From positions 510,603 through 550,891 of the forward strand of contig JAAOMT010000518.1 of assembly GCA_016748015.1 (NCBI GenBank): DNA of 40,289 nt. Reading direction: 5' to 3'. This DNA is from Geosiphon pyriformis uo1. Taxonomy: Eukaryota > Fungi > Glomeromycota. Positions 4,401-40,289 of this stretch are shown here, piece after piece. The notes under the pieces were generated by a model. The model searched no databases, was not told where the DNA came from, and saw only the letters and a program-made list of their open reading frames with translations. Position 1 is the first letter of the stretch. Every line of letters begins with the position of its first letter. A program made the translations under genes and the position numbers.

Positions 4401-6986
4401 GAATATCTAACTTTCTTCCATCTTCTTGATTTTTCAAAAATCTCCTGTTCTGTTTCTTCAGCCCAATTAGATGTTGATCCAAGAGCCATGTAGGTTTCAG
4501 TAAGTGGCATTTCTTTTTTTTCTTCAAATTCAAATACTGGAGCTTTTTCTGATTGTTTGTTAAAAGTACTACAGGTTGCAGGTACTATGGTATATTGTTC
4601 TTGGTATGAGATTTTAAGTTTTTGAGTTTTCCAGTTCAGGTTTGCATTGGCCTTGAGAAGCCAATTATTTCCGATTAGAGCTTGGTATTAGGGTGCATCT
4701 ATAACAAGAACTTTAACTGGAATGGTAATTCCATTAATTGAAAAAAGGAAATCATCAATTTCTCCTACTGGAGTCTTCTTTATACCATCAGCTGTAACAA
4801 TAACTGTTTGAGCTGGTCTGTCTATGTTTTGTTTAAGTTGTTGCATCAGCTGGTAAGTGATGATACTTCCAGCTAATCTACTATCTAAGATTAAGCGAAT
4901 GGGTTTTTTTTCCACTGTAGCTTCTGTGTACATAGCAGTAATTGCTTTCTGTTCATTGACTGCTGCATTACTAAGCAGAAATGGTGATTCATTTGCTTCA
5001 AATTCGAATAGAAATATATCTGACAGATTGGCATTTTGGGCAATTTGAGCTGATGGAATGGTGTGGTTGGAAGGGTTTGATCTTGGTGCTGCAACTTCAC
5101 CTTCAAAAAGTGCAGTTTGTTGAAAATCCGATTTCTCTGGTATTGTAAGATAACTGGGTTAAGTATAATAGTAATTGGGTCTTTGCTGACCAGAATTTCG
5201 AAGAACCAACTGGTTATTTAAATTGATTCTGTTGTTGTTACTCTGCAATTGATTTTGGGATGTAAATTGGTTATGTTGAACCAATCTTCTTGTTGGTATT
5301 TGATATTGTTGAGTGGGTGGTGTCTGATATGGCTGAATTGATAAAGATTGCTGATATTGTTGCTGCATTGGTTATAGAGCTGGTGGATAGTAACTGTTTT
5401 GATTTTGTGGTCTTGGTGAATAATAGATTGGTGGTGGAGATTAGTAATAAGATTGTTGTGGTGAAGAGTAATGTTGATTACTCCTGTTTTGTTGGTCTCT
5501 TTGTAATTTCCTACAATCTCTTTTCCAGTGTCCTGGAATTCCACAATAATGACAATTTTGAGGTTGGTTGTTAGATAGTAATCCAAAATTGTTTTGGTTG
5601 CATTATTGTGGGGGTTGATATCTTTGTGGTTGTTATTGCTGTTGTTGTTGGTTTGTGAAGTAGCTTTCAACCTTTTTTGTAAGTTGGTCTATCTTCTCTT
5701 TAGCTGCTAAGCTGGTTTCTCCAATTGCAAGGTTTACAAGCTTGGTGTAATTTGCTTTTTCTATTGCCATTTTATAGCTCTTTGCATGTCTAATAGCAGT
5801 TGCTAAGTCTGCTGGAGCATGTGAATGGACTTTCTTAATCAGTTTGTCTTTTAACCCTACTATAAACTAATCCAAAATTTGAGCATCAGAATAGTAGTTA
5901 TTAGTTTCCAATTGTCGGATTCGTCTGAGAAGTTTGTTAAATCTTCTAAGATAAGTCATAACAGTTTCAGATGTTTCTTGTTTGATATTGCAAAAGCAGT
6001 TTCTGAGAGTGATAGAGGTATTGTTATCAGTGAATTGTTGTAGAAAAGCATCTTTGAATGCTTGCCAGTTTTCAAATGATTCTTCTAAATTTTCAAAACC
6101 ATTTTCCTGTTGTTCCTTGGAGAAAGTAGGGAATTGCTTTAAGCATTCTTGCTGCAATCCAACCATTTGCATCTCCTGCTTTTTGAACTTTGTCAAGTCA
6201 TTCTTAAGAACTGGTATTATTGTCTTTACCAATAAATTCTGGGATTTTTGCAATATAAGCAGTTGCCATTTTTTCTTTGTTTTCTGTAATTTCTTCTGGT
6301 TCTGATTCAGTTTTTTTACTTTCCAAGCTTTCTGAATGATTATTTTTGTTTTCCTATAAGTAATCAATGATATTGGCACTTGTTGATATTGGTTTTTGTT
6401 GTTGAGTAGGATTTCTAGGTGACTGAAAATCTTCTGGTCTGAAAAAATGGTTAAGTAGTAAACTTGGTGTTTGTAATTGAACAAGTAAAATTAAAAATAG
6501 TGTAATAAAAAGTGGTAATTTAACACTGGTTCCTTGTTCAGGTGTTTGCAAGTGTTTGGCAGTTGTCTTTGATAGTATTGGAGTGTTTGGAGTGGTTCTT
6601 AAGTATTGTTTCACTTTTTGTTTGCCTCTGTTGCTTGTCTCTGTTTTTGATTCAAAGTTAAAAGAGTATTTGGGCTGTACTAGGTATTTTTCTTTACAGT
6701 ACTTAATAATATTAAAATTAAGTTCTTGGAAGTAGGTAGCAAGTGTTTCACTGTTCAGGTCTTCTGTTCCCAATTGTGAATAGTGCACTAAATTATTGTA
6801 GAGGTTGCTTCTAACTTCTGAAATGTTGTAGTTTTCAAAAAGATAATTGTTGATACGATTTTCAATATATTGGTATACTGATTTCTTAACAACTTCAATT
6901 TCGTCTGGAATGTTGAATCTTTGCTTGCAGTGAGTGTAAATTGACTGATGATACTCTAGAGTTGTTGTGTCTGGTGTGGTTGCCAC
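1426..6986 (-). pseudogene. Gag-Pol polyprotein of A (N-extension, Gag, PR, Cys-rich module, dUTPase, RT, RNase H), decayed
   Basis: Fragments include LILDSRLAGS (PR), IASRSSLASKG/IDAGYTG (dUTPase), SSWASPVV..RFCVDY, LDLESGYWQ, YLDD (RT) and ATDAS (RNase H). There is a stop at 1426-1428 after RNase H. Confidence 0.92.
3215..3640 (-). pseudogene. dUTPase domain of element A
   Basis: Motifs DAGYDL, ASRSSL, IDAGYTG, KIA(Q>stop) and RRTQDFGST. Confidence 0.9.
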
Positions 6987-7013
6987 TTTGAATTTGTTGT
7001 TGCTGTGTTATTT

Positions 7014-7029
7014 TCATGGAAGAACACCA
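7014..7029 (-). promoter_or_regulatory. Primer binding site of A
   Basis: TGGTGTTCTTCCATGA lies 2 nt after the LTR end; C has TGGTGCTCTTCCACGG. The priming tRNA cannot be assigned firmly (TGGTGCTC could fit Thr or Ile). Confidence 0.8.
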
Positions 7030-7601: not shown

Positions 7602-8473
7602 TGTTATGGTTTAAGAATTTAGCAAAAGAATCATAAAAATAATACAAACTATTCAATCATAATATAGTAATGATTAACATAGTAGCAAACACCATCTCGC
7701 AATAGTGGCAAGCACCAGTTCATAATAGCAGCCAATACCAACTGGTGATAGCAGCAAACACCAGATTGAAATATCAAAAAGAAAGTATTACAATGTGTTT
7801 TCTCATAGAACTACAAACATGTATATATACAATAGCTTTAATATTGGGAAAAAACAATCAAGTAATAAAAATTATAACTTATCAAGCAATAGATCCAATT
7901 TTATCCAACAAACTCCACTTTAAATCATACATTCAAATTAAATATCCCAAGAAACTTTTAAATCAAAAAGAAATGAAAAAAAATATTTAAAACTGAATTA
8001 TCACAACCCAAAGTATTAAGAAATTTACTTGTATTATTTATTGAATGAAACTATCATTCATCAACTGAATCTCTTGGAAGAATAATTCTTGATCAAGATT
8101 ATTCATATTGTTACTAATTGATAAAAGCTTTATTGTAAGAATTAGGAAAAGCACTAAAGGCCATTAACATTCTGTGTTTCTAGATTAGAGAAACACATCA
8201 GGTAAATGCAAAGATAGCCTCAGAGAAGACCCCAGACAGTGAGTAGATTTCAGTTCAGCCTCTGAGAAGAAGTACATAAACACACACAACAATCAAAAAT
8301 TGAAGAATAACTTACATCACAACATTAAAAAGAAAGTCTTCAGTATAACAGTGACATTATCACACAAATAGAATTGAGGAACTCACAAAAGACTGATTGC
8401 AATTAAAATGGGATATCAGCAATTAAAATGGGATATCAGCAATTAAATATAACAAGAAAACCATCCTGTAACA
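7602..8473 (+). repeat. 5' LTR of B (872 bp)
   Basis: TGTTATGG...CCTGTAACA; about 95% identical to 16753-17626. Confidence 0.97.
7679..7770 (+). repeat. Four degenerate 23-bp tandem units in U3 of the B LTR
   Basis: atagtagcaaacaccatctcgca / atagtggcaagcaccagttcata / atagcagccaataccaactggtg / atagcagcaaacaccagattgaa. Confidence 0.75.
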
Positions 8474-8475
8474 TT

Positions 8476-8490
8476 TGGTAAACCTTACAA
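8476..8490 (+). promoter_or_regulatory. Putative primer binding site of B
   Basis: TGGTAAACCTTACAA lies 2 nt after the LTR end. It differs from the PBS of A, C and D; tRNA unassigned. Confidence 0.7.
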
Positions 8491-8555
8491 GGAAAGAAAA
8501 TCAAAAAGAAAATAATAATTAGCAATAATTCATTGCTAAAAAGGAAGAAACAAAA

Positions 8556-11500
8556 GTGGCGACAAAAACCCTTAATCTTACTGTTCTTGAATTCTGCTGT
8601 GCTATTTACACACAAAATTAAAGTGATCTTGGATTACCAGAAAAGTGTTGTCCAGCAGAATCTGCTCTCACTTATTATATCAATGCCAGAATAAATCATC
8701 ATATAGGAAAAGAAAAATCACACAATGCAAAACTTGGATTGTATAAAGAATTATCACAATACACTACAAAAGAAGTAGCAGTAATAGCCACAACTATTGT
8801 CAAAATCCATTGAGAAATTGAGCAATATGCCAACAAAAATTTTCCAATATTCACAGAAAACACTAGGGAACGTGCCAACAAAACCAGAAAAAATTTAGAA
8901 ACTAATCAGGAAAGTAACCAGCAAAAACTAGGAACACCTGCTCAAACACCAAAAAAAACTGTCATTCAATCAATAAAGAAACAATGTATTTATTCACCAG
9001 AAGATAAATTATACCATTTTTCACCAGAAAATAAGATACAAATTCCATTAGGAGCTGCATCATCATCAACATCAACTCCACAAATGCCAAAAACTCCTAG
9101 TTATACTGATAAAATTAAACAACATAACTGGGGAGACATACCAATTACAGGAGGATATTCATCACTATTCTAAAACCCTCTTTTTCAGCCAAAATTTAGA
9201 ACAGGGTTTGAAAACCATGAAGAGGAGTCTGAATCGGAATCCGAAAAAAAGACCAGCAAAAAAACAATCACAAGACCAGTCACTGGAACAAGCAGCCAGT
9301 CTAGAAACCAAGAAACTTGTGATCAAAAGAAAAAACCGGATATAAAAGAAGCCAACTTTAAGAACACTCAAAGAAATATCATCCTACCTCCTCTTAGACC
9401 AATAAGCCCACCAGCAGAAAACGGCAACAAAATGGCCACATCATACATTACAAGACTAACAGATTTTTTAGGAGAGGAAGAAGAAATGGATATGCACACG
9501 TGGCTCAAAGAAACACAAAAAGCTATCCAGGCAAATAATTGGAATAACCAAAGAGCAATTCAAACATTACCTTTCTTCCTAAAAGGCACAGCCAACTTGT
9601 GGTATCAAAGTCTGGAAACAAAACCCACAAGCTTTGCTGAATTTAAAAATGCACTCCTAGAGTATTTTAGCAATCCAAACACTATAATCCAACTACAAAA
9701 CAAATTCAATACTATCAAGCAAAATACTGGTGAAACTGTCACCCAATACCTTGCTCGATTCAATTGAATTTGCCATCAGATTGAAGTGATTGAACAAAGA
9801 TACTACACTGATCCTCAGGTTTTAAATCAGTTTATTAGAGGATTAAAAAGCAGCATTTTAGGAAGAGTACACCCTGCCTACCCTAATTCCTTACCAGAAG
9901 TTATTACGCTTGCCAGAGTCTTTAAATTGGCTGAGAAAGAAGCTAACCATAGTCAAATGGTTAACATGGTAATGGAGAAAAATAAGACAGAAACATTAAA
10001 GAAAAAAATAATGCAATTAGGGAAGGAACTCTCTAAGAAAATAGAAAGTTACCTCATCCCGGATCTGAGAAGAAATACATACCAACCACCCCAAAGATGC
10101 AGCCAGAAAGTCAGCGACAGTTGAAATAATTGCTTGTCATGCCAAGAATTCAGAACAAAAATGTGTGCCTGCCATTTTTGCAAATGCATAAAACATTTGA
10201 TTAGTCAATGTCAAATGCGAATAATACAAGAAGCACATGAAAATAATTACTACATGCCACCCCAAATGCTCAGAAACCAGTATATGCCAATACCACATCA
10301 ATATCCCACCACGTATCAAAATCAAGAAACTTACTAGCAATAGCCTATGATAGCCAACCCGAATTGGCATCCCAAGGCCTAAAATCAGCCCATGTGAAAC
10401 CAGAACACATTGGTCCAGAGAAATCCAAACTGTGCTAGAACCAATCAGCAAACCAATCCAAACTACCAAAATTATCAACAAATTTATCTTAATATACTGG
10501 AAAATCTAATTATCGAAAACAATGATGGTAAAAACATAAACAGAACCAAAAATTCCTCTAACAAATTGAGCCAGACAATACCACCAGCAGTTGTCACTGA
10601 AGATAGCAGCCTTGCAGCTATTTTTTCTTTTGAATTAGAGGAAAACGAGGCTATGTTCAATGGAGCAGCATTGGATGAAAAATGTCCAATCACTGCTATA
10701 TATACAGAAGCCACTGTAAACAATATCCCAATCAAACTTATCTTAGACAGCAGATTTGCTGGAAGCATCATAACACTTCAACTAGTAAACCAACTGGATT
10801 TCAAAGTTGATTGTGCTGCGACATTCCAATCATAACAGCCGATGGAAATACAAAGCTGCCTCATGGCAAAATCGACTCATTTTCTTTCAAAATTAACGGC
10901 ATAGTAATACCTACAAAAGTATTAGTAATAGACACTACACAATATCAAGCATTAGTAGGGAATGACTGGTTAACAAAAGCCAACACCATTCTAGACTGGA
11001 CCACTCAAGAGCTTCTGATCAATTATAATGGCCACCAGGCCAAAATTCCAGCCACCTGTGGCCATTTCTAAAAACCCAGCGCCAACCAAAGACCTACTTT
11101 CAAATTTGAGGAAAATCCAGCACTACCAGCCATCAAAACCTATCAGCTCTCTTGGGCTGATGACCAAAAAACAGGACTACCAACTGTACCAACATGGACC
11201 AGCAAAAAAAGATCCAAATAGAACCAGATAAGTTTACAAAGAAACCACTAGCAATGCAGACCAAAGCTAGAATGCTCATTTTGCAAGAAGAAACTCTTAT
11301 TTATGACTGCATGCAGCACACCAGACAAAGACCCAAGAAACCCCACCCATTACTATTGTAACCATTGTAACAAAGAAAAATATGGTTACCCAGAAAGACA
11401 CAGAAAATGGAACAAGGAACTATGCCTCGTTTGTAGAGAACCATTATCAAGAGAGTGCGACTAGAATAACATACTAGGCAGAAGAGGAACATGTGACACA

Positions 11501-14263: not shown

Positions 14264-14292
14264 AAATCACCAACCTACCCACTACAACAACA

Positions 14293-16739: not shown

Positions 16740-16752
16740 AAGAAGGGGATAA
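16738..16752 (+). promoter_or_regulatory. Polypurine tract of B
   Basis: AAAAGAAGGGGATAA immediately precedes the 3' LTR. Confidence 0.9.
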
Positions 16753-17626: not shown

Positions 17627-17630
17627 ACAT

Positions 17631-18071
17631 TTTTTTGAAGAGAAAAGCTTTTTTTTATACAACTTGTTATAATACTAGTCTATGAACTTGCACTTTTTCT
17701 CTTTGCTCAAATTTCAGCGAACTAAAAATACACTTTGATGAGCTACAAGTTATTTCACTGAACTATTGATTAATTTGGATGAACTATTCATAATTTCGGC
17801 AAATTTTTATAAATTTTGGCGAATTTCATATAAATTTTGACAAATTTTTGTAAATTTCAACGAATTTTAGAATATTACAAAGTTCAGGGTATTGTGTAAT
17901 TTGATCATCTTACTTTCTGTTGTACTAATTGGATTATTAATTGAATCGTGATATGTGATAAATTGATTAAATAATAAGTGATAATTTGAAATGATATTAA
18001 TATACTAATTAATTATAGGGATTATAAGGGTAATTTTATGCTAATTACTAACTAAAATTCTACTGGTAACA
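17631..18071 (-). repeat. 5' LTR of A, U3 part
   Basis: Joins 7601 seamlessly once B and one TSD copy are removed. Reverse complement matches 33376-33790, starts TGTTACCAG, and has a TATA-like box at 17653-17659. Confidence 0.9.
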
Positions 18072-19150
18072 ATGCTGAACTGATTTTGTAATCTGATAAG
18101 AATGTTAGGGTCACAAAAATATTGCAGAAAGACAAGTTTAAAGGCAGCAAAGTCAGTTGGTTTCTCTGCAAGGCTTTGATACCATAAGTCTGTGGTTCCG
18201 GTCAGAAAGAATAGCAACGCTTAAATGGTTCTATCATTATCCCAATTGTTGATAGTGATGGCTTTCTTGGCTTTCACGATTCATATATATGTGTTATCTT
18301 CTTTACCAGAGAATTTCTCTAATTTGGCAATATTTTGGTAAGCCATGATCTGGTGAGTAGGTGGAGTCTTACTGATTGATGCCAAGAGGTTTGGTGTTTA
18401 CATACTAGAGTGTTCTCCTAGTGCTAATTCTGGTTGTTTCCCTTTGTTAATTTTCTCAATGGACTGAAGGATAGCTGTTTCTTTGGAGGGGGTGGTTGAT
18501 GATTTAGTCAATGGTTGGGTTGGTGGTGGTTCCCACGTCAATGTATTTCTATCTGTTTTGTTAAGTGTTGAGGTGAGATTTTCAAACAATGATCCATATT
18601 CTCCTAATGATTTGGTCCAACTATGTTGATTCCAAGGGTGTGGATTTCCAGGAGTGCGTGGTGTTTCCGACTGAGTTTCCAGAGGTGGATTGAATACAAT
18701 TCTACTTTGGAGTATCTGATAGTATAATGAGATAGTTGAAGAGAAAAACCTTGGTTTTTTGTTGACCATGGACTTGGCTTGGGCAGTTCCAGGGTTGTTG
18801 AATTCGTCTTTGTATTTGTCAAGGTCAGATTCCACTGGTTGTTGTACTTGAGAGAATCGTTTTGCTATGTAATATTTAATGTCTATATTAATTATGCGCA
18901 GAGTTTCAGTGATTGCTTGGGTAGTCGTGGCTGTTGAGTACTCTAATAAGCTTTGATGGATTTGTTCTTGCAGTCTTTCTGTGTTGGTTGCACAGCCTAA
19001 TAAGCAGTCAATTTTTGCATTGATATAGTTACAAAAATTACTTTCTGTGTAAGCAGTTTTTGTTGGTATTCCTAGGTCTTTTTGAAAGTATTAAAATAGT
19101 GCTCTTCCATATGGAGAGTAGTTCTTTTCTACTGTTTTAATAGTCACCAC
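18072..19150 (-). pseudogene. N-extension plus Gag N-terminus of D
   Basis: GTG at 19150 is in frame with ORF 18398..18835 and with the Gag ATG at 18346. YINAKIDCLLG resembles B YINARINHHIG. Confidence 0.8.
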
Positions 19151-19211
19151 TTTTGTGTATTTCTGGGGTGCTCTGTCTCTGTGGATTTATAACCTCACAA
19201 AGAGCACCAAA

Positions 19212-20261
19212 TGTTATGGATAAACTTGGTGGGTAATAGAAATAGTAACGTTTGGTGCTCTCAATTATTAGTAATGTATCTTCCACATAATTCTGTTGGC
19301 TTAGTCTCGATTATCAGTCTCTGAAGGTCTATTTTTGGATGTGAATTTACCTATTGAGTTCTTTGATTATAAGGCACAGAGTTCATTTTTCATTGATTGC
19401 AACGTTTTCTGTAAATGTAAGCTTTTCTTCTCCGAGCTAACAAGCATAGTCATTAGGATCTGGCAGTGTCTTTTTGCCTTTTTGGTAAGCTAACAAGATA
19501 ATATTAATATCCAAAACTTAGGGAGAGTCTCCCTCTTTTATCAGGCTATCATGAAGTCTATTTTCAGACAGTTAATTTTACTATATTGCTGCTCCACAAA
19601 AGAAAATAAGAAAGAAAGAAAAAGAAAGAAAAGAAAAGATAAATTAGTATTGTCAATCACTGTAATCAAGAGTGATTGGTCCAAGTTGTTAATAGTTCAA
19701 GGCAGTTATGCTAAAAACATCTGTTCTGGAATGAAGGTATGAAACAATGGTCAATTCACATAAATTCCACACAGTTCAAGAACATGAATTCATGATTCTG
19801 ATTTCTCAATAATTGATTTATTTCAGAAGATAAATATGGAATATAATAAATAAGAAGGAGGTATGAATATTTGTTTTTTGTCTAGTGGTTTGTATCTATC
19901 TCTGTCTTTTTCTATCTTTTACCACTATTCGCTTTTATACATTTTTTTGGTTTTATAAGATTGCTTCTGATTGTTTTATTATTGCTAACTATTGCTTTGT
20001 TATTTCTGTTATTGCTTTGTTCTTTTACGTTATTACTAGTTATCCTATGTTATAACATGTTATCTAGTGTTATTTTGTGTTATCCCATGATGTAACATGT
20101 TATCTTGTACTATTCTAAGTTATAACACATTATTCAACATTATTGCATGCTATCCTAAGTTATAATGCATTATTCAACGTTATTGTATGCTATTCTATGT
20201 TATGTCATGTTCTGGTTATGTTTCTTCATAACTTTAGATCAGTTTTTCTACTTGGGTAACA
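19212..20261 (-). repeat. 5' LTR of D (~1050 bp)
   Basis: TGTTACCC...CCATAACA termini, TATAAAA at 19933-19939 and internal tandem repeats. Confidence 0.82.
20035..20215. repeat. 10-bp-period tandem array in U3 of the D LTR
   Basis: TGTTATnnnn-type units (e.g. tgttataaca tgttatctag tgttattttg) with a higher-order ~40-bp repeat. Confidence 0.75.
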
Positions 20262-25996: not shown

Positions 25997-28218
25997 TTAT
26001 CAAATAAACAATTTTTTTATTTGGTTTTGTTAATTTTACAGTCTATTATTAGTTATCAAATACAGTTTAATTTTATATTTAAAAATGTGTGCCAAAAATA
26101 TAATATTATGTTAAAGAAGAAATTTAAATCTAAAACCAATCTGTTAAGAAATTTTCTTAATAAGACTTTATACTATCTATTCTTTTATAGATTAAAAACT
26201 TTTAAATAGTTATAAATAAAAGGCAAGATTGTTTTATTAAGTGTATTTTTTAATGTACTTGAAATTTTTGGTTAATTGTTTAAACATTATTTCTTAAACT
26301 TGTAGATTTTAAAGTGGATTCTAATAAATTTTTTGCAGTATTCTGTTAAATTAAGAGTCAGTTCTATAAATAACTTTTTAGCAGATATTGTAAAAATTTT
26401 TTTGGATAACAAGATCTTTTTAGTCTATAGTCTGCTCAATATATTTTGTGATTCTAAATGGTTTTTAATATCAAAGATTTTGGAAAATTTTTTTATTTTA
26501 GTGTGGTTAATTTTTTAAAATATTTTAATATTGTCTTTAATAATAAATTATTAGATAAGCAAAAGTTAGTTATAAGTTGAAAAACTTTTCATTATTAGAA
26601 AAAATTAAGTTTTAAAAGTCTAATGTTATTGTGATTTAAGAAAACTTCAGTTTACATAAATAGTTATCTTTTTAAATTTAAAGGAACTGTTTTTGTTTCT
26701 AATTGCTTAAATATCTTTTACTTAGATAAATTTTTAAACATTTAAGACTATTTATATGAACTATAAGCAGATATCTTTAATATTTACATGAATAATTCTT
26801 TAAAGTAATTAGATACTATAGAAATTGCTAATAGAACAACAGCTTATTTTTTTGATATTGGAGTGAATATAGACATAAAAGTACATAAATTGTTGTTTTT
26901 TACAATATTAGAACTTTAGGCAATTATTTTAATATTAAAGTGTATTCCTTTATTTTGCTTGGTAATTGTGTATATAGACAGTTAAATAACTTTGAATACA
27001 TGTATTTTAGAACTTGAGCTTTATTTGTTAGACTTTTGAAATAAATATTAAATTAAAAGGTGTTATATAGCTAATTTAATAAAATTTAAAAACATTTTTA
27101 TTAAATAAATAAAGATTAAAAATTATTTAAAAGACATTAATAATGACAGAGCTAATATTTTTGTATATAATACAACATATTTGGCTTTGTTTTTCCTAAA
27201 AAAAGTTATAAAAAATTTATTATGACTAATAGTTGAGTTGTATTAAAGAATATTTATTACTTTGTTTAAGATATTTATTAAGTTATTTGTTGTATTTAGT
27301 GAAAAGCCAGTCTAGATACAAAGGTCATAAATAAATTGATAATTAGAAAAATAAATTAAAATAGTATTGTTGTAATATAACATTCAGATTTTCATATGTT
27401 ATTAAGATTTATAAACAAAACTTTAGCTGTTTTTCATATATATTTGATGAAAATAATCTATAAAAAACTGTTAACTACTATTAAAAAAAAACTTTATAAC
27501 AAAAATTATTTAAATGTGTTATGTTTAATATGTAACAATATTAAATTGCCTAATTATTTCTTCATTTATTTAAAGAAAATTTCTTGGTATTCTGAAATTC
27601 TGCTAAATTATATAGATTTGTGAAAATTATTGGTAAATAATTATGCTCTATTAATGTCTTTGATGCTATATACACTTTTTTCAGAAATTTCAAATGTTAA
27701 TATTTATATAATTTTGTGCAAAAGTTTTATTTTTAAAGATTGAATTAATAAAACAGTTTTAATTTTTGGCAATAAAAAAAAAGACAGTATTGATTATAGT
27801 TAATTTTATTTACTGTTTGGCTAAAAAGCATTAAAGTAAATTATGGTTATTTAGAATAAGGTTTAGAATAAACATGGAAAAAAATAGTCTAGTTAGTAAT
27901 ATTAGAATAATTCTTATGGCTTTAAGTAGTGTGTTAAGTTTTTTGTTAGTAGGAATTATTTATTAGCTTGGTATTGATAAGTTTTTTGCTATTAGTTTTG
28001 GTTTATAAAAGATTTGCTCTCTTTTTTTAAGTGTTAATAATAGTGTAAGAGTTTATATAAGTATATAATATTGTTTTGATTGGCTTAAGTAATTAGTTAT
28101 ATGTAGTAAGCACATAAATTATGTTTGTTAAATTTATTTGGTTTGTTTCTGTATGCTAGATAGTAGTTGAACCATATTTATTAAATAATAATAATAATAA
28201 TAATAATAAAAATAAAAA
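25997..28218 (+). mobile_element. 5'-truncated, heavily decayed LINE copy F (same family as G)
   Basis: Translates to relics of G ORF2 (KQFFYLVLLILQSIISYQIQFNF, SVKLRVSSINNFL, VLCLICNNIKL). It has a homologous 3' UTR and an (AAT)n/A-rich tail at ~28183-28218. Confidence 0.85.
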
Positions 28219-28425
28219 CTCAATTTATTATTTAATTATTAAATAAAAACCTATTATATTAACTAAAAAAAAATTATAAATTTTATTTAATATTTTTTTT
28301 TTTATTGTTTAATGAGTGCAGCCCAACCACTATCTAGTATACAGATACAAGCTAAGTGAATCTAACTAAATGTGGCTTATGCATTTGCTACATGTGACTA
28401 GCCACTGAGGCCAATCTAGGCAACA

Positions 28426-31400
28426 CTACATACCTACGTAAACTTTGACATTATCACAAATACCAGAAAAAAAAAGACTAGCCTTATGCAAACCAAAACT
28501 GACAGCAAATGCCTCATCAATCCCAAGAAGACGAACAACTCCACCAGACAAATGTTTAATAGAATTAGCTGAAAGACCAATGGGAATTTCCAAAGCACAG
28601 ACCAACCCACAACGTTCCATGTCCACTCTAAACTTAGCTCTGGTCAACCACAAACCACACCAGTGTTTTTCTGCCAGACGTCAAACAAAATCAGCCACCA
28701 CCAAAAAAGCCTGATTGCAATCCTTGAAATGTACTGTAGCTTCATCGATCCAATCTCTCAGTACAAAGTCTTTACACAGTTGCATATACGCTCCTAAATC
28801 ATGACAACTAGCAAGCAGAGTACACAACATAAAAGAGGATGCCGGAGAGCAGCCCATCAGCAATGACTTCCACAAAGCAATCCCACCCAACAAAATATCA
28901 GTATGTGCAGCTGCCTCACTTTGACAAGTAAATACATGATCCAACAATTCAACATCACCACACATTAAACAGAGAACCCCAGAATAACATTTATCATACA
29001 ATCTTTTATGAACGGCAACTGGCAACTTCCTATGGACCACTTTCATTAAGTAGGTGTGGAGAACAGTTGAAGCTTGGCTTGTAAAGCCCGATAGCATATA
29101 GGAGTTCAGATGCCAAACTGATGCCATGCACTTCTAATCAACTCTCACAATTAACTCCTCATTGATCACCACAGAGCCAGGGCCAGCCTCCCATTGAGCA
29201 CAACAGATAGACCTATAAATATCCTGAACAAAATGTCGAGCATTGTCTGAAACAACCTGATTATGAGCCATGACATACCTTTCCCGAACACTTATAGGAA
29301 GAGACAAATCAGAATAAGCAGTATGCCCAGCCAAAACATCAGTCTTGTCATTGTGAACATCACCTGAATGGCCCTTCACCTTCACCCACCCAACAGAAAA
29401 GTCCTTATCCTTGATCAACTTGCAAATATAACGCCTCTCTACCCAACACTTGTTCCTGAAATCTGGAGCAATCAAACTCAATTCTGAAACACATGCATCA
29501 ATAGCAGCCTAACTATTAGTATTAATAACAACCGAACACAAAGAAAGAACACATTTTAGTGCCAGAACAATAGCGTAAAGCTCAGCCATAGTAGAAAAAA
29601 GCAACCCACTGACCTCAACACCAATACTCACACCAGCATCAGGAAAATAAGCTGCAGCCCCACCTGCAATCTCTGCAGTGCCCAAATGAGACAGAAAACC
29701 ATCAGTATACACTGCGAAAGCATCAGACTAGGATTCATGTAAACATTCTCAAACAACCAAATATCTTTCCAAATCAGAAAAGCTTGAACCACCAGAGACT
29801 GTGGATAGACTACTAGGAATGAAATGATAACCATTCATGTACGCAGAAACTTTGAAGTACCACAAGGGTACAGGACTCCTGGAACTTAGTCTCTTCCAGT
29901 GGCGAAAAGTCCTCCAACTGAGAACCAATCCATCCTTGCCTAATAACCTGTCACCAAAGACAATACCAAAACACTTTAAAGAGAGGACCACACCAAAATA
30001 AAAGAAGCTACCCAAGATTGTTGACACAAGGAAGTGACCAGCACCACGAAAAGCACAAGGCAAATTGTTGGCCAGGCATATATCTTTGTTCAAAAAAATT
30101 CTAACCACACCAGTGAGAAAATTGTTAGAGGGACTAACTCTTAACTTCACAGAATGTTGCAAAAGATTTAACGGAGCCCACCCTAATATCTGTAGATCTA
30201 AAAAATGGTGTTCAAACAAATGCCCCAGAATACCAGGCGCATTTGAGAACCAAACCAATGAAGCCATCTTTCCTTCAGCCTAGATCTGTTCAAAAGTCTT
30301 CATGCCATAAAGGGAGGGATGATGTAAAGCCTCACTGGGAAAATTTCAGGGCAAATTCACTTTAAATTTGAGACTCTTCCTTAGCATAACATCCCATTTT
30401 AAGCAGACACTCTTAGAAACAAAGCTGAATTGTGTACAATAGCTAACAATGGGTTGCGGAACTGAAGACACCAAGTACACAACTTGTTTGTCTGTCAAAG
30501 CCTTCCTGAGAACCATATTGGAGAAGAACCTGACATCTGACTGAGCTTTGGCTAAACTGGGTTTAGACAACCCATCTGTCAACAAAAAAATGCCCAGATA
30601 TCTATGAGCCTCACCCTGTTTGGGAATAGAGATAGATAGTTCATTAATATGCAGAGACGCAGCTGAAACTCTTTTGTTGATAGGAATTGCCACAGTCTTT
30701 TCACTGTTAATTGCAATATTATTGACCTCAAAAAATTCGCCCACAATATCCAAGATATGTTGTGTCGATGCTTGACCATTACCAATCCAGATAGTATCAT
30801 CCACAAAAGCACCTGCCACCAAGAATGAAGACCAACCACCACTAGACTCAATTCTGCCAGATTTCGCTACAAAGTTGGTATTGATTCTGTAACTATACAA
30901 ATTTTTATGATCCTTAATCTTGCACAACAAAGGGTCATAAAAAATCCTCCACAAGAGAGGAGAGAAGACTTCTCCTTGATCCAAACCATCCAACACATTG
31001 TATCTATCCAAAAGGCCAAAATCAGTCATCACTCTATTAATTCTGCCTACATGTAAGTTCCCGAAAAACAACACAAATTTGTCACACATTTTGATCCACT
31101 TCAAACTGGCCTCCAACTGCCACCAACCAACGGAATCATAGATCTTACACATATCCTGCAACACCAACCAAACCTCTCTATTTTTTTTCAGAGCATCTTC
31201 CACAATTGAATCAACAGCGAAAACTGGAGATTGAATAGACGTACCCTTCAGGACTGAGAAATTGTCACCCCAGAGAACATCAAATCTGGAACAGACCGAA
31301 GAGATATGGTCAGACAATAATTTAGAGAGTATCTTTCTGGCTGTCTCAATTAATGCAATGGGCCTTGTATTCATAAGAATGCCATCCCATTCATATGGTT

Positions 31401-33111
31401 TGGGAATCATAGAAACCCAAGCTCTTTTCCAAAGGACTGGAACCTCACTGGTATTTAGGCAAGAATTTAAGAAACCCAATAAACAGCCAAGTATATCATC
31501 ACCACAATGTTTCCATAGCTCATTAGAGATACTAGACAGGCCAGCCGCTTTGCCATCAGGTAGATCCAAAATCATATTCACCAATTCATTGAAATAGATA
31601 TCATTCATAACATTAGAGAAGGCATTATCTTTCACATAATCCAAAGACGCATATTGGTGGGCCCATCTGGAGGGCATCATTAAAAGTAACATATGCTCTC
31701 TTGTCTAGTTAACCATGATATTGTTGACTCTGCTTTTCACCTCAATTGGATCCAAAACCAATTCATCGCCTATAACTAAGTAGTCCAACACAATCTTACA
31801 AAAAGGCCACTCCAAAACACTCCTAATCATGCCACCCTTGTTAGAACTGAAATTCTCTATGTATTTATTAATAGCACTCCGAATTGCCATATTCCTAGCC
31901 ACTCTGGATTCATAATACTTAGACTTTCTATAACACTTCCTAACCTGAAACAGATGCTTGAACACCTCCACCAAATCAGCTCCATTTTGAACCAAGAAAT
32001 CAAACTTGAAAGCCTCTTTACAATCAACCAAAAACCATCTCTTGATTAAGTGATTACACTTATGCTTATTACCTGTATTCAAACTCTTGACAACCTTAGC
32101 CATCAACAATTCAAGTCCAAGGAACCTCAATGAATGTTTGTTCCTTGAACAGTCAAATTCGCTAAACCAGCGTCTAGAAAATGTAGCATCAGTGGCTCTC
32201 ACCATAACTCCACACAACACATCCCACATCTCATTCAGATTATCAAAAACCTTAGCACTCAAAAAACTACCTATGACCAAAGACAGAGCAGTGGACACAT
32301 TATCCTTAAACTGTAACCATTTGGAAAGATCAGCATTCTTAAAGTCAAATTTCCATCTGTTTTTGTTGGTCTGTTTGTGAATACTGTTTAGCTGAGCATT
32401 AAGAAGACCCTCCAGCCCAATTGAAACTGAAATCATCTTATGATCTGTGTCAAAAAACTCCAAAACTGCACTAATGTCCTGTTTCATCAGAGCAGAAATT
32501 AAGTTTTCACTAACAAAGATATAATCAATAACTTTTTTCACACCTCTGGAGTTGTTTTACATAAATAAACTAGCCAAAGAGTGTCCTTTGAAAGAGTTAA
32601 CAAGACCCAGATCCACATATTTTCTGAGACTAGCACTTTTCTTGGTATCTAATTCATTGAAGTCCCCATCCAAGATGACAAAAGAGCTTGAGTTGATAGC
32701 ACTAGTGATCATGAAGTTGACAGCAAAAGCCTGGCCAAAACACACACTAGCAGATGCACCTGCATAGATACCCAAGATTGTAACTGAAAGTTTGCCCTTA
32801 AACAAAAGCCGAATCAAAATCAACCGACCAGGAATCTCATCAATCTTTGAAACATGTTGAGCCACTGAAAAGTTCATAATAACAGTCACGTCAGCACCAG
32901 AAGAATCTGCATTAAGACCTAACATAAAAATGCGAACACCAGGGAATCTATTCATGATCCATGGCTTAATGCCAGATTTCAACTTTGTCTCTGTAATGAT
33001 AGAAATGTTATTACCAGAATCTACATGCCATCTAACTACATTGTCCTGTTTGGCAAGAATGTTCACACTCCTCACATTACATGTCACAATTCTTCAAACC
33101 AAACTGCTCAT
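28426..33111 (-). pseudogene. LINE ORF2 (endonuclease-RT-RNase H-zinc finger), 1562 codons in one frame with premature stops
   Basis: APE: TCNVR, TETK, GDFN, IDYIF, TDH. RT: NTRPIAL, YDSV, QGEVFSPLL, AFVDD. RNase H: YTDG, TMAEL, VKGHSG..ND. Zinc finger: CLMCGDVELLDHVFTC. Confidence 0.93.
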
Positions 33112-33375: not shown

Positions 33376-34354
33376 TATTACCAGACGAAATTAGAGATAT
33401 TATTTAGCATGAAATTATCTTATAATTCCTATCATTAATTAGCATATATTATCGTTTCAAATTATTACTTATTACATTAGCAAAAATGTCCAAAATTATC
33501 ATTTAATTAATAACCCAAATTGTACACAACACAAATGTAACCTAATTGCAATGATCAATCATGCAATACCCCAAATTATATAACATTCAAAAGTTCACCG
33601 AAATTTGTAGAAATTCGCCGAAATAATTGATAGTTCACCAAAATATCTAATAGTTTGCAGAAATAACTTATAGTTTGCCGAAATGTATCTTTAGTTCAGC
33701 AAAATTGTAGAAAAGAGCAAAGTTTAAGTTCATGGAATAGTGTTACAACAAGTTGTATAAAAGAAGAGCTTTTCTCTTCAAGAAAATATATCTTACTTTA
33801 GATTTATCACTTAGAACCATTTCTACACATACAAAAAAAATAAATATCAAATAATTTAAAAAACCAAATTCTTTAATTATTGCACTTAGAAAATCCTTAA
33901 AACCCAACTAACATTTTGAAATTGATTAGCTACCAATTTCAGTAAACTGTTAGTGACTCCAGGCCTGAATAAAAAATGTTCCCTTGATAAAAACCTATTT
34001 CTTTTACATTTCTTTTATTTTTATTTTTCTTTTCTTATTACAATCATTAGAGTAGCCTACAGACAAGATTCCTGTAGAAGAGTTGACTTTCACAGCAAAG
34101 TAACTACACATTTTTAGTGAGCTTCCAGACAAGCAATTCCTGGGAAAGAGTTGACATTTACTACAACGTAACTATATAAAGTAACTGGCACGAAATTGGC
34201 CATTCCACTTATAAGCCCAGCAGTTCAAATTATAGAAGATAATTTGAAGAGAAAATTCAGTTACTGGAGGTTCAACCACATCCAGAAAACGTAAATTCAC
34301 AGCAAACAAGCATTGACAACATTTAAGAAAAGAGACCAAAAACCTCCAGTAACA
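33376..34354 (+). repeat. 5' LTR of C (979 bp)
   Basis: TATTACCAG (decayed TG)...CAGTAACA. It has ~20-bp tandem units at 33590-33710, TATAAAAG at 33756-33763 and a ~65-bp direct repeat at 34061-34180. Confidence 0.9.
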
Positions 34355-34356
34355 TT

Positions 34357-34372
34357 TGGTGCTCTTCCACGG
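34357..34372 (+). promoter_or_regulatory. Primer binding site of C
   Basis: TGGTGCTCTTCCACGG lies 2 nt after the LTR end. Confidence 0.82.
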
Positions 34373-34399
34373 AAACAACACAGCAAAAACAACTTCAAA

Positions 34400-37300
34400 G
34401 TGGCAACCACACCAGACGCAACAACTCTAGAGTATTACTAGTCAATTTACACCCACTGCAAGCAAAGATTTAACATTCTAGACGGAATTGAAGTTGTCAA
34501 GAAATCAGTATACCAATACATTGAAAACCACATCAACAATTATCTTTTTGGAAATTACAATATCTCAGAAGTTAGAAGCAACCTTTACAATAATTTAGCA
34601 CACTATTCACAGTTGGGAACTGAAGACCTTAACAGCGAAACACTTGCCACTTACTTTCACAAACTTAATTTTAACATTATCAAATACTGTGAAGAAACAT
34701 ATCCAGTACAGTCTCAATACTCTATTGATTTTGAATTGGAAACAGAAACAAGCAACAAAGGCAAAAACAAATTGAAGCAATACTCAAAAACCATCCCAAA
34801 TACTTCAACACTACCAAAAACAACTGCCAACCATTTACAAACACCTGAACAAGGAACCAGTTCAAAACTTTCACTTACTATCACACCTTTTCCAGCTTCA
34901 CTTGCATAAGCACAAACGCCTAATTCATCCTTGAATTGATTTACAAGACCAAAAGATTTTACATCACTCAGAAGTCCCATCAGACAACAAGAACCTCTTC
35001 AAACTAGTTCCAATCTCCTTGACTTTCTAGCTGAAAATCAAAGTGAACACTCTGAGACAGCAGTGAATAAAGAAAACGAACCTGAAATATTTGAAGAAGA
35101 ATCAATAGACAGTAAGAATGAAGAAAACAAAATGACAACATACATCGCAAAAATTCCTGAATTTAATAGAGAAGACATTGAGACCAGTTCCCAAGAATGG
35201 CTCAACCAAGTTACTAAAGCTGGAGATGCAAATAGATGGAATGCTGCCAGAATGTTAAAAACAATTCCCTACTTTCTCAAAGAAACAGCAGAAGAATGGT
35301 TTGAAAACTTGGCTGCCCCATTCAATGATTGGAACACTTTCAAAGCAGCCTTCCTTGAACAGTTCACCAACAATAACACCTTCATCACTCTTCGCAATCA
35401 TTTTTGAAATATCAAACAAGAACCCTCCGAATCCATTATAACTTATATTAGAAAATTCAACAAACTTCTCAGACGAATTCGCCAACTCGAGACAAACAAT
35501 TATTATTCTGATGCTCAAATCTTGGATCAATTTATCGCTGGTCTAAAAGATAAACTAATTAAAAAGGTTTGCTCACATGCGCCAGAAGATTTAAACTCTG
35601 TCATACAGCATGCGAAAAGATACAAAATGGTCATGGAAGAGGCCAACCACACAAAACTTGTAAATTTGGCAATTGGAGAAACCAGCTCAGCAGCTGAGGA
35701 AAAAATTGACCAACTCACAAAGAAGGTTGAAAACTATTTCACCAATCAACAACAACAGCAACCCCAAAGATATCAACCACCCCAAAGACAAAATCAAAAT
35801 AACTTTGCACCACTTTCTAATAACCAGCCTCAGAATTGTCATTACTGTGGAATCCCTGGCCACTGGAAAAGAGATTGCAGAAAGCTACAATGAGACCAAC
35901 AAAATAGGAGTAATCAACGTTACCCTCCATCACAGCAATCTTATTATCAACTGCCACCACCAGCTTACTATCCACCAAGACCCCAATACCAAAATAACTA
36001 TTATCAGCCTGCCCCACAGCCAATCTCACAGCAATACCAACAACTGCTCACACAACATTATCAAGTACCTGCTCGAAGACTGCTTACACAAAATCAATTC
36101 ACACCACAAAACCGATACCAAGCAAACAACAATAGAATCAGTTTAAACAACCAATTGGTTCTCCAAAATACCACTCAACCAAGACTCAACCACTACCACA
36201 CTCAACCCAGTTATTTAACAATGCTGGAAGAACAAGATTTTCACCATACTGCACTCTCGAAAGGTAGAGCTGCAGCACAACAACAAAATCCTTCCTATAC
36301 TCCCACCACAATTCCACTAGTCAGAATCGCTAAAAACACTAACCTTTCAGATATATTTCCTTTTGAGTTCAAAGCAAATGAGTTACCATTTCTGCTTAGC
36401 AATGCAGCTGCCAATGAACAAAAAGCAATCACGGCCATGTACACTGAAGCCGAAGTCGAAGGAAAGACAATTCACTTAATTCTAGACAGTGGATCTGCCA
36501 GAAGCATTATCACCTACCAGTTAATGCAACAGTTGAAAAAAAATGTTGACCGACCAGCTCAAACAGTAATCGTCACTGCCGATGGCATGAAAAAGACCCC
36601 AGTAGGAGAAATTGACAATTTTCCATTCACTCTTGATGGAATCACCATTCCAGTCAAAGTTCTTGTAATGGATGCACCTCAGTACTAAGCTCTCATCGGA
36701 AATGATTGGCTTCAAAAAGCCAATGCTAATCTGAATTGGAAAACACAAGAGTTAACAATCTCCTACTAAGAACAACATGCCTGGGTATCTGCCACTTGTA
36801 GTATATTCAACAAATGCTCTGAAAAAGCCCCAGCTTTTGAATTCGAACTGGAAGAGGAAAAACCCCTCATTGAAACATTCATGGCTCTTGGATCAATGTT
36901 CAACTGGGCCAATGAAACAGAACAAGAACATTTTACCCCACACTCTGAACCCAAAACCTCTGGATGGAATATCCTTTACTCAAAATCTGAACCAAGAAAA
37001 CAATGCCCCTATATTCCCCTTAAATGTAAGAACTGCCACAAAAAACTATCATCAATGGGAGCCTGTATTTCACCTGAAGAAGAATATGAAAATCATACTT
37101 TTTATTACTGCAAGGCTTGCCACAGAGAATGATGGGGCCATTTAATAAAAAGGAGCAGAAAATGAAACAACACCTCTTGTTTGACTTGTGGAGATATGCT
37201 ACCGGAAAAATGCAATTGGATTAATGTAGCCATGAGAGGAGGAGTTTGCAATCAGACCTGCCAATATGCTTTATCAATTTCAGAAAAAGTAAAAAGAGGA

Positions 37301-40018
37301 ACACCCTTTAATGCAGCATACAACAGTGCTCTCAACAAACTTTATCACTACCCCCATGATGCTGAGATGATTTTCAACCTAGCAATGGCATTAATTAATG
37401 AAGCTACCAAAGAAGATGTTCGTCAAATAAAGGAAGCAGAATATATTGAATACACTATAGAATTAGCTGGATTTGATTACGAAGATGAAGTAGAAGTCTA
37501 CCACCAAATTGCAAGTTACACCTACTCAATCCAAGAAGCTCAAATTCAACAATTAGAGCAAATGAACATTAGGCTATGTGAAGAATGCATTATGCCTTGC
37601 AATGAACAGTGGTGTTCTGAATGCTACGCTTTTAGTATCCCCTTGCCCAGCAAAAATGATGAGAACAAAATTGAATTTAGAGAACCTGAAGCAACAGAAG
37701 AAATTGAAACAACACCTATTTACCTTATCGAAAATCAGTCTGCCTTACAACTTAAATACTTCAACAACAACGGACACGAAATAAAACCCAAAAAAGCACA
37801 CAAAATTGATGCTGGATATGACTTAAGATATCCAGGCAAGGATACTCTTGTTCTCAAACCCAAATCTCTCACAAAAATCAACCTCAAAATTGCACTCGAA
37901 ATCCCGCCAGGAGCAATGGTTCAAATCACCTCCCGGTCCTCTCTGGCAAGCAAAGGAATCAATGTCAAAGGAGGAATAATCGATGCTGGATATACTGGAG
38001 ACATTACAGTAATGCTTCAAAATAAAATTGACAAACCATTCAAAATCGAACATGCTGAAAAAATTGCCCAAGCTATTTACCTACCCTTAATCAACATTTC
38101 AGGTTTGCAACTAGTCAATCAAAGAGAACAATTAGGAAAAAACAATAGAGGAACCCAAGGTTTTGGTTCAACTGGACAATTCACAGTTCCAGTTAATATA
38201 GCTCTTAACATACAGAACGAATCCCACCAGATTCTCAGACTTCCACAACCAATTACCATCTCACTCTTTGGAGTACATTCGGAAATCTACACCTGCCCAA
38301 AGCCAACAACCACACAACAAATTTTTGAGTCCAATGAACAAGTCTGCTTGGAACATAATATTTCAATCCCAAACATTTATATTCCAGAAGGAACAAAGAA
38401 AGTCCAAGTTACTTTTTACAATCCCAATAATTATTCCATAATTTTATTAAATAATTTAGAAATTGGAGTTATTCACAGTAATATATTTCAACAAGAATTA
38501 CCCCAAACAGTTCCCGATTTCTCTGAAATTATTGGACATTCACTACCAAAAATCAATCCAAATCCCAGCTCCGAAAACTATCATGTTGTCATAGAAAAAC
38601 TATCTCGAATCAACATGGGACAACTTGAACCACAACAACAAACCCAGCTCAAAGAGCTAATTGCAGAATTTGCCAATATCTTTACTAAAAACAACAATGA
38701 CTTAGGAAGAACCAATTTAGTCCAACACCAAATTTATACAGAAGATGCCAAACTAAGAAGACAACAAGCATATCAAGTTGCTCCAGAAAGCCACCAATTT
38801 ATCTGAAAAGAAGTACAATGAATGCTTAACAATGGGCTCATCCAACCCTCCATGAGTCCTTGGGCTTTATCTGTAGTGCTAGTTAAAAAGAAAAATGGAA
38901 AGATCTGATTTTGTGTTGACTATTGACAACTTAACAGTGTTACAATTGGAGACACCTACCCCCTTTCCCGGATTGATGACATGTTAGATGCCCTTGAAAA
39001 ATCTAAATACTTTTCAACACTAGATTTAGAAAGCAGTTATTGGCAAGTTGCTATGGATCCCAAAGATCGCCCCAAAACAGTATTCACCACCCAAGACAGA
39101 AATTACGAGTTCAATGTAATGTCTTTCGGATTATGCAATGCACCAGCAATGTTTCAGAGATTAATGGATGTTGTGTACCAAGGACTTCTTTGGAAGTCAG
39201 TAGTCGTTTATCTTGATGATACTGATGTTTATTTTCCATTATTTGAATTACACTTAAAACACCTGCGAGAAGTTTTTCAATGATTACAAAAAGCAGGACT
39301 AAAACTCAATATCAAAAAATGCTACTTTGGAAAAACAAGCCTAGTCTTCCTTGGTCATATTATTAGTAAAGATGGAATCAAACCAGACCCTGGAAAAATC
39401 AGCATTGTCAAAAACTTCAAAACTCCTCGAAACACTACAGAACTAAGAGGATTTATAGGATTAGCATCCTACTATCGGAAGTTTATCAAAGGATTCTCAG
39501 AAATTGCAAAACCCCTTAACCAGCTCACCACCAAAAACATTGAATACAAATGGACTACCGAACACCAAGAAGCTTTTGAAATTCTCAAGAAAAAACTGAC
39601 AACAGCTCCAATTCTCACCTACCCGAATTTCAGCAACCGATTTCGACTAGCTACAGATGCTTTGTATATTGCTTTTGGTGTCATCTTATCACAACTAGAT
39701 AACAACGGAAATGAGCGAGTAATTGCTTATGCTAGCAGAACATTAAAACCAGCTGAGAAAAACTACCCTGCCACAGAACTAGAAACAGCAGCCATAATTT
39801 GGGCCCTACACCACTTCAACCTTTATCTCAGGCCTAAAAAATTCGATATTATCACTGATAATATTGGACTCAAATGGCTTCAGAACAAAAATACTCAGCT
39901 GAATGCAAAACAAATCCAATGGACAAGATTTCTAGCAAACTATCGATACATAGTACATCACAAACCAGAAAAACTCCACACCAATGTTGACTGTCTCTTT
40001 AGAATAAGACAAGATTAG
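34400..40018 (+). pseudogene. Gag-Pol polyprotein of C, 1873 codons in one frame (N-extension, Gag from ATG 35132, CCHC, PR, Cys-rich module, dUTPase, RT, RNase H)
   Basis: ORF pieces starting at 34613, 35063, 35522, 36155, 36881, 37181, 38981 and 39662 share one frame. Motifs: CHYCGIPGHWKRDC, LILDSGSA, VVVYLDD, ATDA and NYPATELE. Confidence 0.95.
37751..38177 (+). pseudogene. dUTPase domain of element C (uninterrupted)
   Basis: All five motifs: DAGYDL, SRSSL, GIIDAGYTG, KIAQ and RGTQGFGSTG. Confidence 0.95.
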
Positions 40019-40070
40019 AAAAACACAAAAACCAACACTCAACTTAACCAACCAAAAGAGCCAACAAACA

Positions 40071-40289
40071 ATGAATTCGGAAAACTACAATGATCTCAAA
40101 CAATATTTGGAAACATTAACAATTCCAACAGATCGGTCTCCAAATGAAAAACATCGACTACAACAACAAGCCAAACAATATTTTCTACACAACAACATTA
40201 TTTATCATCAAAATTTCAAAAACCCAGACAAACCACTCAGATTAATACAAGAACAGAAAAAAGAGACTATATTATACAACATGCACTCA
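40071..40289 (+). CDS. Start of the integrase ORF of C (partial)
   Basis: AAACA-ATG MNSENYNDLKQYLET...YNMHS matches the IN N-termini of A and B; it is out of frame with RNase H. Confidence 0.85.
   Translation, partial: MNSENYNDLKQYLETLTIPTDRSPNEKHRLQQQAKQYFLHNNIIYHQNFKNPDKPLRLIQEQKKETILYNMHS

Follow-up and report, generated by a model that had tools for sequence, protein, structure and literature searches.

A conserved GUG codon and an AUG-depleted interval point to an N-terminally extended Gag in Ty3/gypsy retrotransposons of Geosiphon pyriformis

Introduction

Four retroelements with a visible 5' end in the genome of Geosiphon pyriformis uo1 raise the question of where translation of their Gag protein begins. 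Ahead of the Gag ATG each of them carries a long stretch in the same frame, and this stretch opens with a GTG codon shortly after the LTR. Is the stretch translated, does the GUG serve as its start codon, and would the AUG at the capsid be used as well? We addressed these questions in a window of 40,289 nucleotides (contig JAAOMT010000518.1, positions 510,603 to 550,891, forward strand), by which we mean the whole stretch of DNA analyzed. An earlier note on this DNA, made from the sequence alone, had proposed that leaky scanning past the GUG makes two Gag forms, analogous to the CUG-initiated glyco-Gag of murine leukemia virus (MLV). Long Gag forms with a non-AUG start have precedents in a retrovirus and in domesticated gag genes; published systems are compared here as far as the accessible parts of the cited texts describe them.

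Results

The window is filled with a pile of decayed retroelements, four of which are referred to here as A, B, C, and D (Table 1). Pfam detected retrotransposon Gag, CCHC knuckle, aspartyl protease, dUTPase, RT, RNase H, and integrase domains, and in C and B these follow the Ty3/gypsy order of Gag capsid and CCHC knuckle, protease, RT, RNase H, and integrase. Element B is full length (7602-17626), with LTRs at 7602-8473 and 16753-17626 that are 91% alike and the target-site duplication ACAT on both flanks (7598-7601 and 17627-17630), inside an LTR of A. The junction of LTR and primer-binding site (PBS) reads TAACA-TTTGG in all four elements. By their LTRs, PBS, and domain order, and in B also by the duplication, these elements are Ty3/gypsy LTR retrotransposons (Metaviridae). 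They are nested, B within the 5' LTR of A and A within gag of D. Because A and C belong to one family (77% DNA identity), the window represents three independent families, not four.

Table 1. Positions in the window of the elements and of the features discussed in the text
Feature	Position	Strand	Remarks
Element C, 5' LTR	33376..34354	+	start approximate; TAACA terminus; contig loose ends at 34354
Element C, primer-binding-site-like stretch, TT-TGGTGCTC...	34355..34372	+	from the sequence
Element C, out-of-frame ACG	34369..34371	+	31 nt upstream of the GTG
Element C, codon -8 in the Gag frame	34376..34378	+	stop in copy A
Element C, AAA-GTG-G, inferred long-Gag start	34397..34403	+	A at -3, G at +4
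Element C, conserved domain	34400..34714	+	~105 codons; four predicted helices; one decay stop
Element C, Pro/Thr/Ser/Gln-rich linker	34715..35131	+	in frame; weakly constrained; two decay stops
Element C, Gag ATG	35132..35134	+	~9 residues before the first capsid match
Element C, remainder, Gag frame	35135..40289	+	cut by the window end; order: capsid, CCHC knuckle, protease, Cys-rich insert, dUTPase, protease-like, RT, RNase H
Element A, AAA-GTG to Gag ATG	6267..6989	-	AAA-GTG 6989-6984; Gag ATG 6269-6267
Element A, out-of-frame ATG	7015..7017	-	31 nt upstream of the GTG; missed in the earlier note
Element B, AAA-GTG to Gag ATG	8553..9434	+	AAA-GTG 8553-8558; Gag ATG 9432-9434; 292-codon extension
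Element B, two AAA-ATG-G uORFs	8408..8481	+	12 and 17 codons
Element D, AAA-GTG to Gag ATG	18344..19153	-	AAA-GTG 19153-19148; Gag ATG 18346-18344; 268-codon extension

From its GTG to the window end, C forms a single frame with 17 stops, so that Gag and Pol lie in one frame (34400-40289, +). No stop is shared by A and C at the site checked: a seemingly conserved stop at codon 922 was rejected, being TAG in one and TGA in the other. The polyprotein of C includes two protease-like stretches. The first (36446-36673, +) is an aspartyl protease that follows Gag; the second (38582-38791, +) lies between dUTPase and RT and matches the spumavirus type (E 8e-5). A Cys-rich insert with several CxxC pairs and no Pfam match occupies ~37000-37250 (+) in the interval from the first protease to the dUTPase.

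Further features of the window were recorded. An exact 295-nt duplication flanks a run of 20 N (16018-16037, within 15723-16332) and is likely an assembly-gap artifact. A decayed element at 28681-33093 (-), with an RT match (E 4.5e-15) and a weak RNase H match, is unlike the gypsy families and possibly a LINE; a fragment of a relative lies at 26006-26611. A 560-nt AT-rich self inverted repeat with 69% identity (27967-28527) is possibly a MITE or foldback element. Tandem repeats of 20 and 40 nt occur in the LTR of C (33592-33684), that of A (17792-17868), and that of B (8399-8447), and repeats of the same class lie upstream of the leader of D (19990-20203).

The motif AAA-GTG-G is present in all four copies, with its GTG at 6986 (-) in A, 8556 (+) in B, 34400 (+) in C, and 19150 (-) in D, at 45, 82, 45, and 61 nt from the LTR end, respectively. 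The in-frame Gag ATG follows 717, 876, 732, and 804 nt downstream (239, 292, 244, and 268 codons). Recomputation thus bore out the claim of the earlier note that a GTG in this context follows the LTR in frame with Gag, while its count of four elements shrinks to three independent families. Elsewhere in these frames, GTG accounts for 14 of 139 Val codons (10%), which puts the chance of a GTG common to three families at about 0.001; a further in-frame AAAGTGG was not found among the 3731 other codons.

Gene models tell the same story at the protein level. Three protein searches with the N-terminal domains returned 166 matches (108 for A/C, 41 for B, and 17 for D), all of them Geosiphon pyriformis gene models, so the named homologs come from a single species and from machine-made models that likely include false introns. 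Residue 1 in family A/C is Val in 54, Met in 15, and another residue in 3 of the 72 models covering it (36 do not); it is Val in 33 of 35 covering models of family B (6 matches lack coverage) and in 6 of 8 of family D (9 lack coverage). When 1.84 billion proteins were searched with a profile, 163 matched, and 9 of the 10 looked up were from Geosiphon; the tenth, P0289, the only one not so named, is a repeat protein matched over 40 positions and was dropped. The profile search revealed a fourth family, E, known from proteins only, whose members start K/T-V-A-E-S. Among 56 assigned proteins, 40 could be anchored, with Val at residue 1 in 31, Met in 7, Leu in 1, and 1 incomplete; residue -1 is K, T, or N, all with codons starting in A, in 32 of 33. 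Codon 1 of family E is probably GTG, judging from the proteins, since the Met variants are one G>A step from it.

Beyond the four copies, DNA evidence came from contigs of run X1, which may be the window's own sample and is not independent; these were mapped on C (666 records) to assess read depth in family A/C. Neither G34400 nor the AAA before it showed a variant at 2% of depth or above, and the GTG is read as ATG in less than 2%; a G>A change at 34402 reaches 6.7%, and CpG decay is seen at 34404/34405. The Met found in 15 of 72 models had raised the possibility of an AUG-start subfamily in A/C. It was rejected as a likely selection bias, because 11 of the 15 are model starts and ATG reads stay below 2%. 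A hairpin downstream of the GUG was not found (z 0.1 to 0.6).

Upstream of the GTG the frame is closed. An in-frame stop lies 7 to 35 codons before it in all four copies, and no in-frame ATG, which the earlier note had named as an observation that would overturn its proposal, occurs between that stop and the GTG in any of them. Codon -8 is a stop in 39% of the A/C family depth, compared with 2-3% at non-CpG C>T sites nearby, which suggests that an active subfamily had its frame closed just upstream of the GTG. In C, the nearest upstream ATG in any frame is 424 nt away, and A has only a decay ATG within ~610 nt. A uORF starting at this ATG of A was rejected: the corresponding ACG of C is ATG in 24% and ACA in 51% of depth in other copies, in keeping with CpG decay at 34370/34371. 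The uORF ATGs of B, at 8408 and 8428, are in strong context and belong to a tandem repeat of 20 nt; they precede the LTR end by 66 and 46 nt, occur in both LTRs, and open frames that end 109 and 74 nt before the GTG. In D, an ATG 138 nt before the GTG opens a uORF of 6 codons. If transcribed, the uORFs of B and D would require reinitiation at the GUG. These ATGs of B and D had escaped the earlier note, whose description of an AUG-free leader holds from the GUG onward but fails at the LTR ends of both elements.

These data bear on the possibility that an upstream AUG, spliced on or within the LTR, starts the extension and that the GTG is a conserved Val codon or a splice or packaging signal. 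Gene models often splice in an exon just before K-V, as this reading would have it, and B and D do have AUGs at the LTR end. However, the exons spliced in are unrelated to one another, the tracts upstream of the GTG in C and A are ATG-free or carry only the decay ATG over the distances given above, the spacing from LTR to GTG differs modulo 3 between families, and an ordinary Val residue would be encoded by GTG in just 10% of cases per family. We therefore consider an upstream AUG highly improbable.

The same region shows a feature of another kind. The LTR end of D includes an 11-nt exact complement of its own PBS, 50 nt upstream of it, in a 16-pair stem (z -5.5; 19196-19262, -); A/C has a weaker complement 25 nt upstream (z -1.5; 34325-34372, +), and B has none. 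The complements of D and A/C are candidates for a U5-PBS hairpin or for Tf1-like self-priming.

Downstream of the GTG, ATG triplets are scarce. A has none up to the Gag ATG and C only one (35118), as the earlier note had counted by eye; B has 6 and D has 5. Comparison with shuffled controls, proposed in that note, gave means of 6.4 (A), 13.2 (B), 7.9 (C), and 11.2 (D) in dinucleotide shuffles, and the share of 2000 shuffles at or below the observed count was 0, 0.003, 0.001, and 0.009, respectively. Pooled, ATG is the most depleted triplet of the extensions (12 seen versus 38.7 expected), whereas gag-pol has 270 versus 265 expected; with one copy per family (C, B, and D), the counts are 12 versus 32.3 (Poisson P 4e-5). 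Codon shuffles, which score only out-of-frame ATGs, gave a weaker signal (P 0.0035 in A, 0.04 in B, and 0.014 in C) that was not significant in D (P 0.12). Among 61 family A models, whose copies are not independent, Met occurs 5 times in 10,833 extension residues versus 68 times in 4,601 residues downstream. The gap concerns all frames, is limited to the interval from the GUG to the capsid Met, and gives way to normal frequencies thereafter.

The internal ATGs that remain look mostly secondary, as had been suggested for B and D: 11 of 12 coincide with CpG-decay-type variation in the family proteins (A/T, E/K, G/R, T/M, and R/C/H), the one at 18597 in D being without a clear decay signature. 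At the in-frame ATG of B (9084), 18 of 27 models have Met, which, like the ATG of D at 18597, speaks against the proposal. CG methylation of transposons has been reported in the related Rhizophagus (10.1101/2021.03.30.436303).

The extension itself evolves as coding sequence. It comprises a conserved domain with predicted helices at residues 7-24, 31-50, 55-69, and 79-100, followed by a linker with 36-39% Pro/Thr/Ser/Gln. Between A and C, dN/dS is 0.14 in the domain (codons 1-105), a value that rests mostly on transitions (transversions 2 versus 2), compared with 0.47 in the linker, 0.18 in gag, and 0.21 in RT-RNase H (Fisher P 2e-10 and 2e-6 for the coding comparison). Indels in the extension are of 6 and 6 nt, and the LTR has single-base indels. 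With CpG-type sites removed, differences between A and C fall on the three codon positions as 5/5/23 in the domain and as 19/12/20 in the LTR control. A lack of purifying selection, the second finding that the earlier note said would speak against it, is thus not what the extension displays.

Homology begins at the GTG, as previously claimed, and the domain is shared by families A, B, D, and E at 16-26% identity, with cross-family HMM matches in 12 of 12 directions (pairwise E 1e-6 to 1e-17). An AlphaFold model built from a 16-row alignment has four helices (pLDDT 85.6, pTM 0.78); a single-sequence model is poor (pLDDT 48.7). Taken on sequence conservation and modeling, the extension is coding and includes a conserved domain predicted to fold.

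Searches for relatives of this domain returned little. Pfam had no match in the first 210 residues of A; a PAZ_2 identity, suggested by 5 of 16 members, all from family B (best E 2.9e-5), was discarded, as fold searches lent it no support. The best match among PDB sequences had E 0.029, the Atlas was blank or below 0.9, and Foldseek with the domain model, a search the earlier note had called for, found nothing with E below 0.001 in PDB or BFVD. VIA-align gave no Z of at least 8 among the matches listed, the best being a designed protein (Z 7.1, rmsd 4.4, 108 aligned); coat proteins of archaeal filamentous viruses, with Z 5.0-5.9 (for 6wq2_a, rmsd 3.4 and 87 aligned), are no more than a weak lead. 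No DNA relatives were found for the domain in viral and metagenome contigs or, by capsid alignment, in metagenome, genome, and viral contigs.

Could the extension be a relic that is no longer translated, its AUG scarcity arising merely from composition and decay? Each extension has indeed decayed to the point of carrying 2-3 stops, and the strand is poor in G and T, as such a reading would predict. Yet shuffles that preserve dinucleotides still expect three times more ATGs, CpG decay adds ATGs instead of removing them, the stops are not the same from copy to copy and are read through in the family proteins, and the predicted fold is kept in four families. This explanation is largely refuted, and we give it hardly any credence.

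An uneven distribution of transversions between A and C was also noticed. LTR and leader (613 nt) have 9 and the domain (315 nt) has 4 (33785-34714), as against 48 in the linker (405 nt) and 67 in gag (769 nt; 34715-36500). Recombination may have transferred LTR, leader, and domain as a unit, or the domain may act on its own leader.

At the far end of the extension stands the putative second start. The capsid profile matches Arc capsids (E 2.7e-5), and the Met at its beginning is kept in four families, in 55 of 61 models of A, 13 of 18 of B, 6 of 7 of D, and 2 of 3 of E. The residues preceding it vary (E/K, I, or P/Q), and the context of this AUG is not uniformly strong, being weak in family E, where Pro or Gln precedes Met.

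Discussion

The features assembled here probably reflect leaky scanning on a single RNA, with a minority of ribosomes starting at the GUG to make a long Gag and the majority at the capsid AUG to make a short one. The earlier note had reached this interpretation, and the sequence data favor it, the AUG gap being confined to the stretch from GUG to capsid Met. The main reason to propose two forms from one RNA is that the gap ends at the capsid Met; a long form alone would not need AUGs to be purged after the GUG, hence the proposal of a short form. Near-cognate start codons depend on an A at -3 and a G at +4, capture 2-30% of ribosomes, and usually serve leaky scanning, and a scan of ~895 nt is on record (PMC3542737). 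By analogy, a few to 30% of scanning ribosomes might start at the GUG and make domain, linker, and Gag(-Pol), and the remainder would encounter no AUG over the next 720-880 nt and begin at the capsid.

Two other ways to read the pair of start sites have to be weighed. The GUG might be the sole start, a weak codon that merely lowers output, with the domain an ordinary matrix-like N-terminus and the conserved Met a cleavage site or a structural residue. Constraint on the domain equals that on the capsid, two protease-like stretches are present in the element, the context of the capsid AUG varies, and metaviral Gags have varied N-terminal domains (PMC10516033), all of which fit a sole start. It leaves the all-frame AUG gap ending at the capsid Met unaccounted for, though, and the variable residues before this Met do not favor it either; we consider it unlikely. 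Alternatively, the short form might be translated from another RNA, one with an internal start, or by way of internal ribosome entry. Ty1 sets a precedent, its internal Ty1i RNA giving rise to p22 (PMC5408680); moreover, a scan of 720-880 nt is long, and the upstream uORFs of B impede simple scanning. But the AUG gap spans the whole extension, which would be needless for a start near the capsid, and a scan of about that length is documented, as cited above. We hold such an internal origin to be very unlikely.

If leaky scanning operates, the closest parallel is MLV glyco-Gag, a CUG-initiated minority long form with 6.7% ribosome density (PMC5778647, PMC3542737). In both cases, an in-frame near-cognate codon in strong context precedes the Gag AUG and opens an AUG-poor extension, to judge by sequence here and by the accessible text for MLV; unlike MLV, the case at hand is a fungal retrotransposon with a conserved GUG and 239-292 codons predicted to encode a globular domain and a linker. 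The analogy drawn in the earlier note extends to the translation scheme but not to the protein, as hydropathy revealed no signal or membrane-anchor segment in the extension. The best 19-residue window scores 0.6-1.45 in 6 of 7 copies, and the value of 2.02 at residue 160 of A compares with 0.62 and 1.45 there in C and P0001. PDB sequences, Foldseek, and VIA-align showed no sequence or fold match to glyco-Gag. A plus-strand frame of 100 codons after the integrase region of B was not found in this decayed copy, and the elements have Ty3/gypsy domains and fungal homologs, which sets them apart from enveloped vertebrate gammaretroviruses. The extension would work like glyco-Gag but is not a member of that group.

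Retroviral matrix domains are marked by a basic membrane-binding surface or by a Gly at position 2 for myristoylation. Here, residue 2 is Ala, and K+R (7-10%) versus D+E (9-12%) does not give a basic, membrane-binding composition. The predicted four-helix core N-terminal to the capsid (pLDDT 85.6) does agree with a retroviral matrix as defined in PMC10516033, and no solved matrix protein appeared among the structural matches listed. Since the accessible part of a survey of metaviral N-termini records no matrix-like fold but mostly long helices and disorder (PMC10516033), a compact four-helix domain would be unusual in this group.

Domesticated genes offer further comparisons. PEG10 uses both an AUG and a CUG 34 codons upstream (PMC2800197), and CCDC8 has an upstream CTG start (PMC10516033). 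Like the Geosiphon elements, they belong to the Ty3/gypsy superfamily and extend a Gag-derived protein from a non-AUG codon; they are mammalian host genes, however, whereas the families described here transpose and keep a much longer extension, with a different, all-helical domain, at 16-26% identity. Ty1 p22 likewise represents a second in-frame Gag length in one LTR retrotransposon, as would be the case here, but p22 is the shorter of the two, starts at an AUG, and derives from an internal transcript of a Ty1/copia element (PMC5408680), and the extra form here would be longer and is predicted to start at GUG. In the fungus Neurospora, cpc-1 has a ~700-nt in-frame near-cognate extension with conserved A at -3 and G at +4 alongside AUG uORFs (PMC5487733), much as seen here; it encodes a cellular transcription factor, uses several near-cognate codons, and shares no homology with the elements.

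Among fungal Gypsy elements, the dUTPase-bearing Tmt1 and PosPlaTy3-5 resemble those of Geosiphon in their LTRs, Gag with CCHC, dUTPase between protease and RT, and often a single Gag-Pol frame; a GUG start and an N-terminal extension are absent from the accessible parts of their descriptions (PMC2864245). Full-text literature searches, which covered few subscription papers, found no transposing LTR retrotransposon reported to start Gag at a non-AUG codon and no prior description of these families. In Ogre/Tat-type elements, gag is preceded by a separate ORF that has an AUG and a stop of its own, unlike the extension here, which is in one frame with Gag.

What the long form might do can be considered only tentatively. 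Its most likely role, in itself less probable than not, would be that of a minor, co-assembled subunit whose four-helix domain, tethered by 130-190 residues of flexible linker, binds a partner in the host for transport or for entry into the nucleus. The domain would hang outside the particle, because the N-terminus of the Ty3 capsid runs outward (PMC6525542). It is conceivable, at much the same level of doubt, that such a GUG-gated accessory Gag, kept across families only about 20% identical, guides particles through a many-nucleate cytoplasm towards membranes or nuclei, or blocks host defense, as an independent counterpart of glyco-Gag.

For Geosiphon, the proposed GUG start would account for a block of mis-built "hypothetical" gene models, in which predictors seem to invent upstream exons that reach an ATG. 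If the proposed mechanism is true, these single-frame elements would set the ratio of their proteins without frameshift or splicing and would carry an accessory domain of no known family under strong selection.
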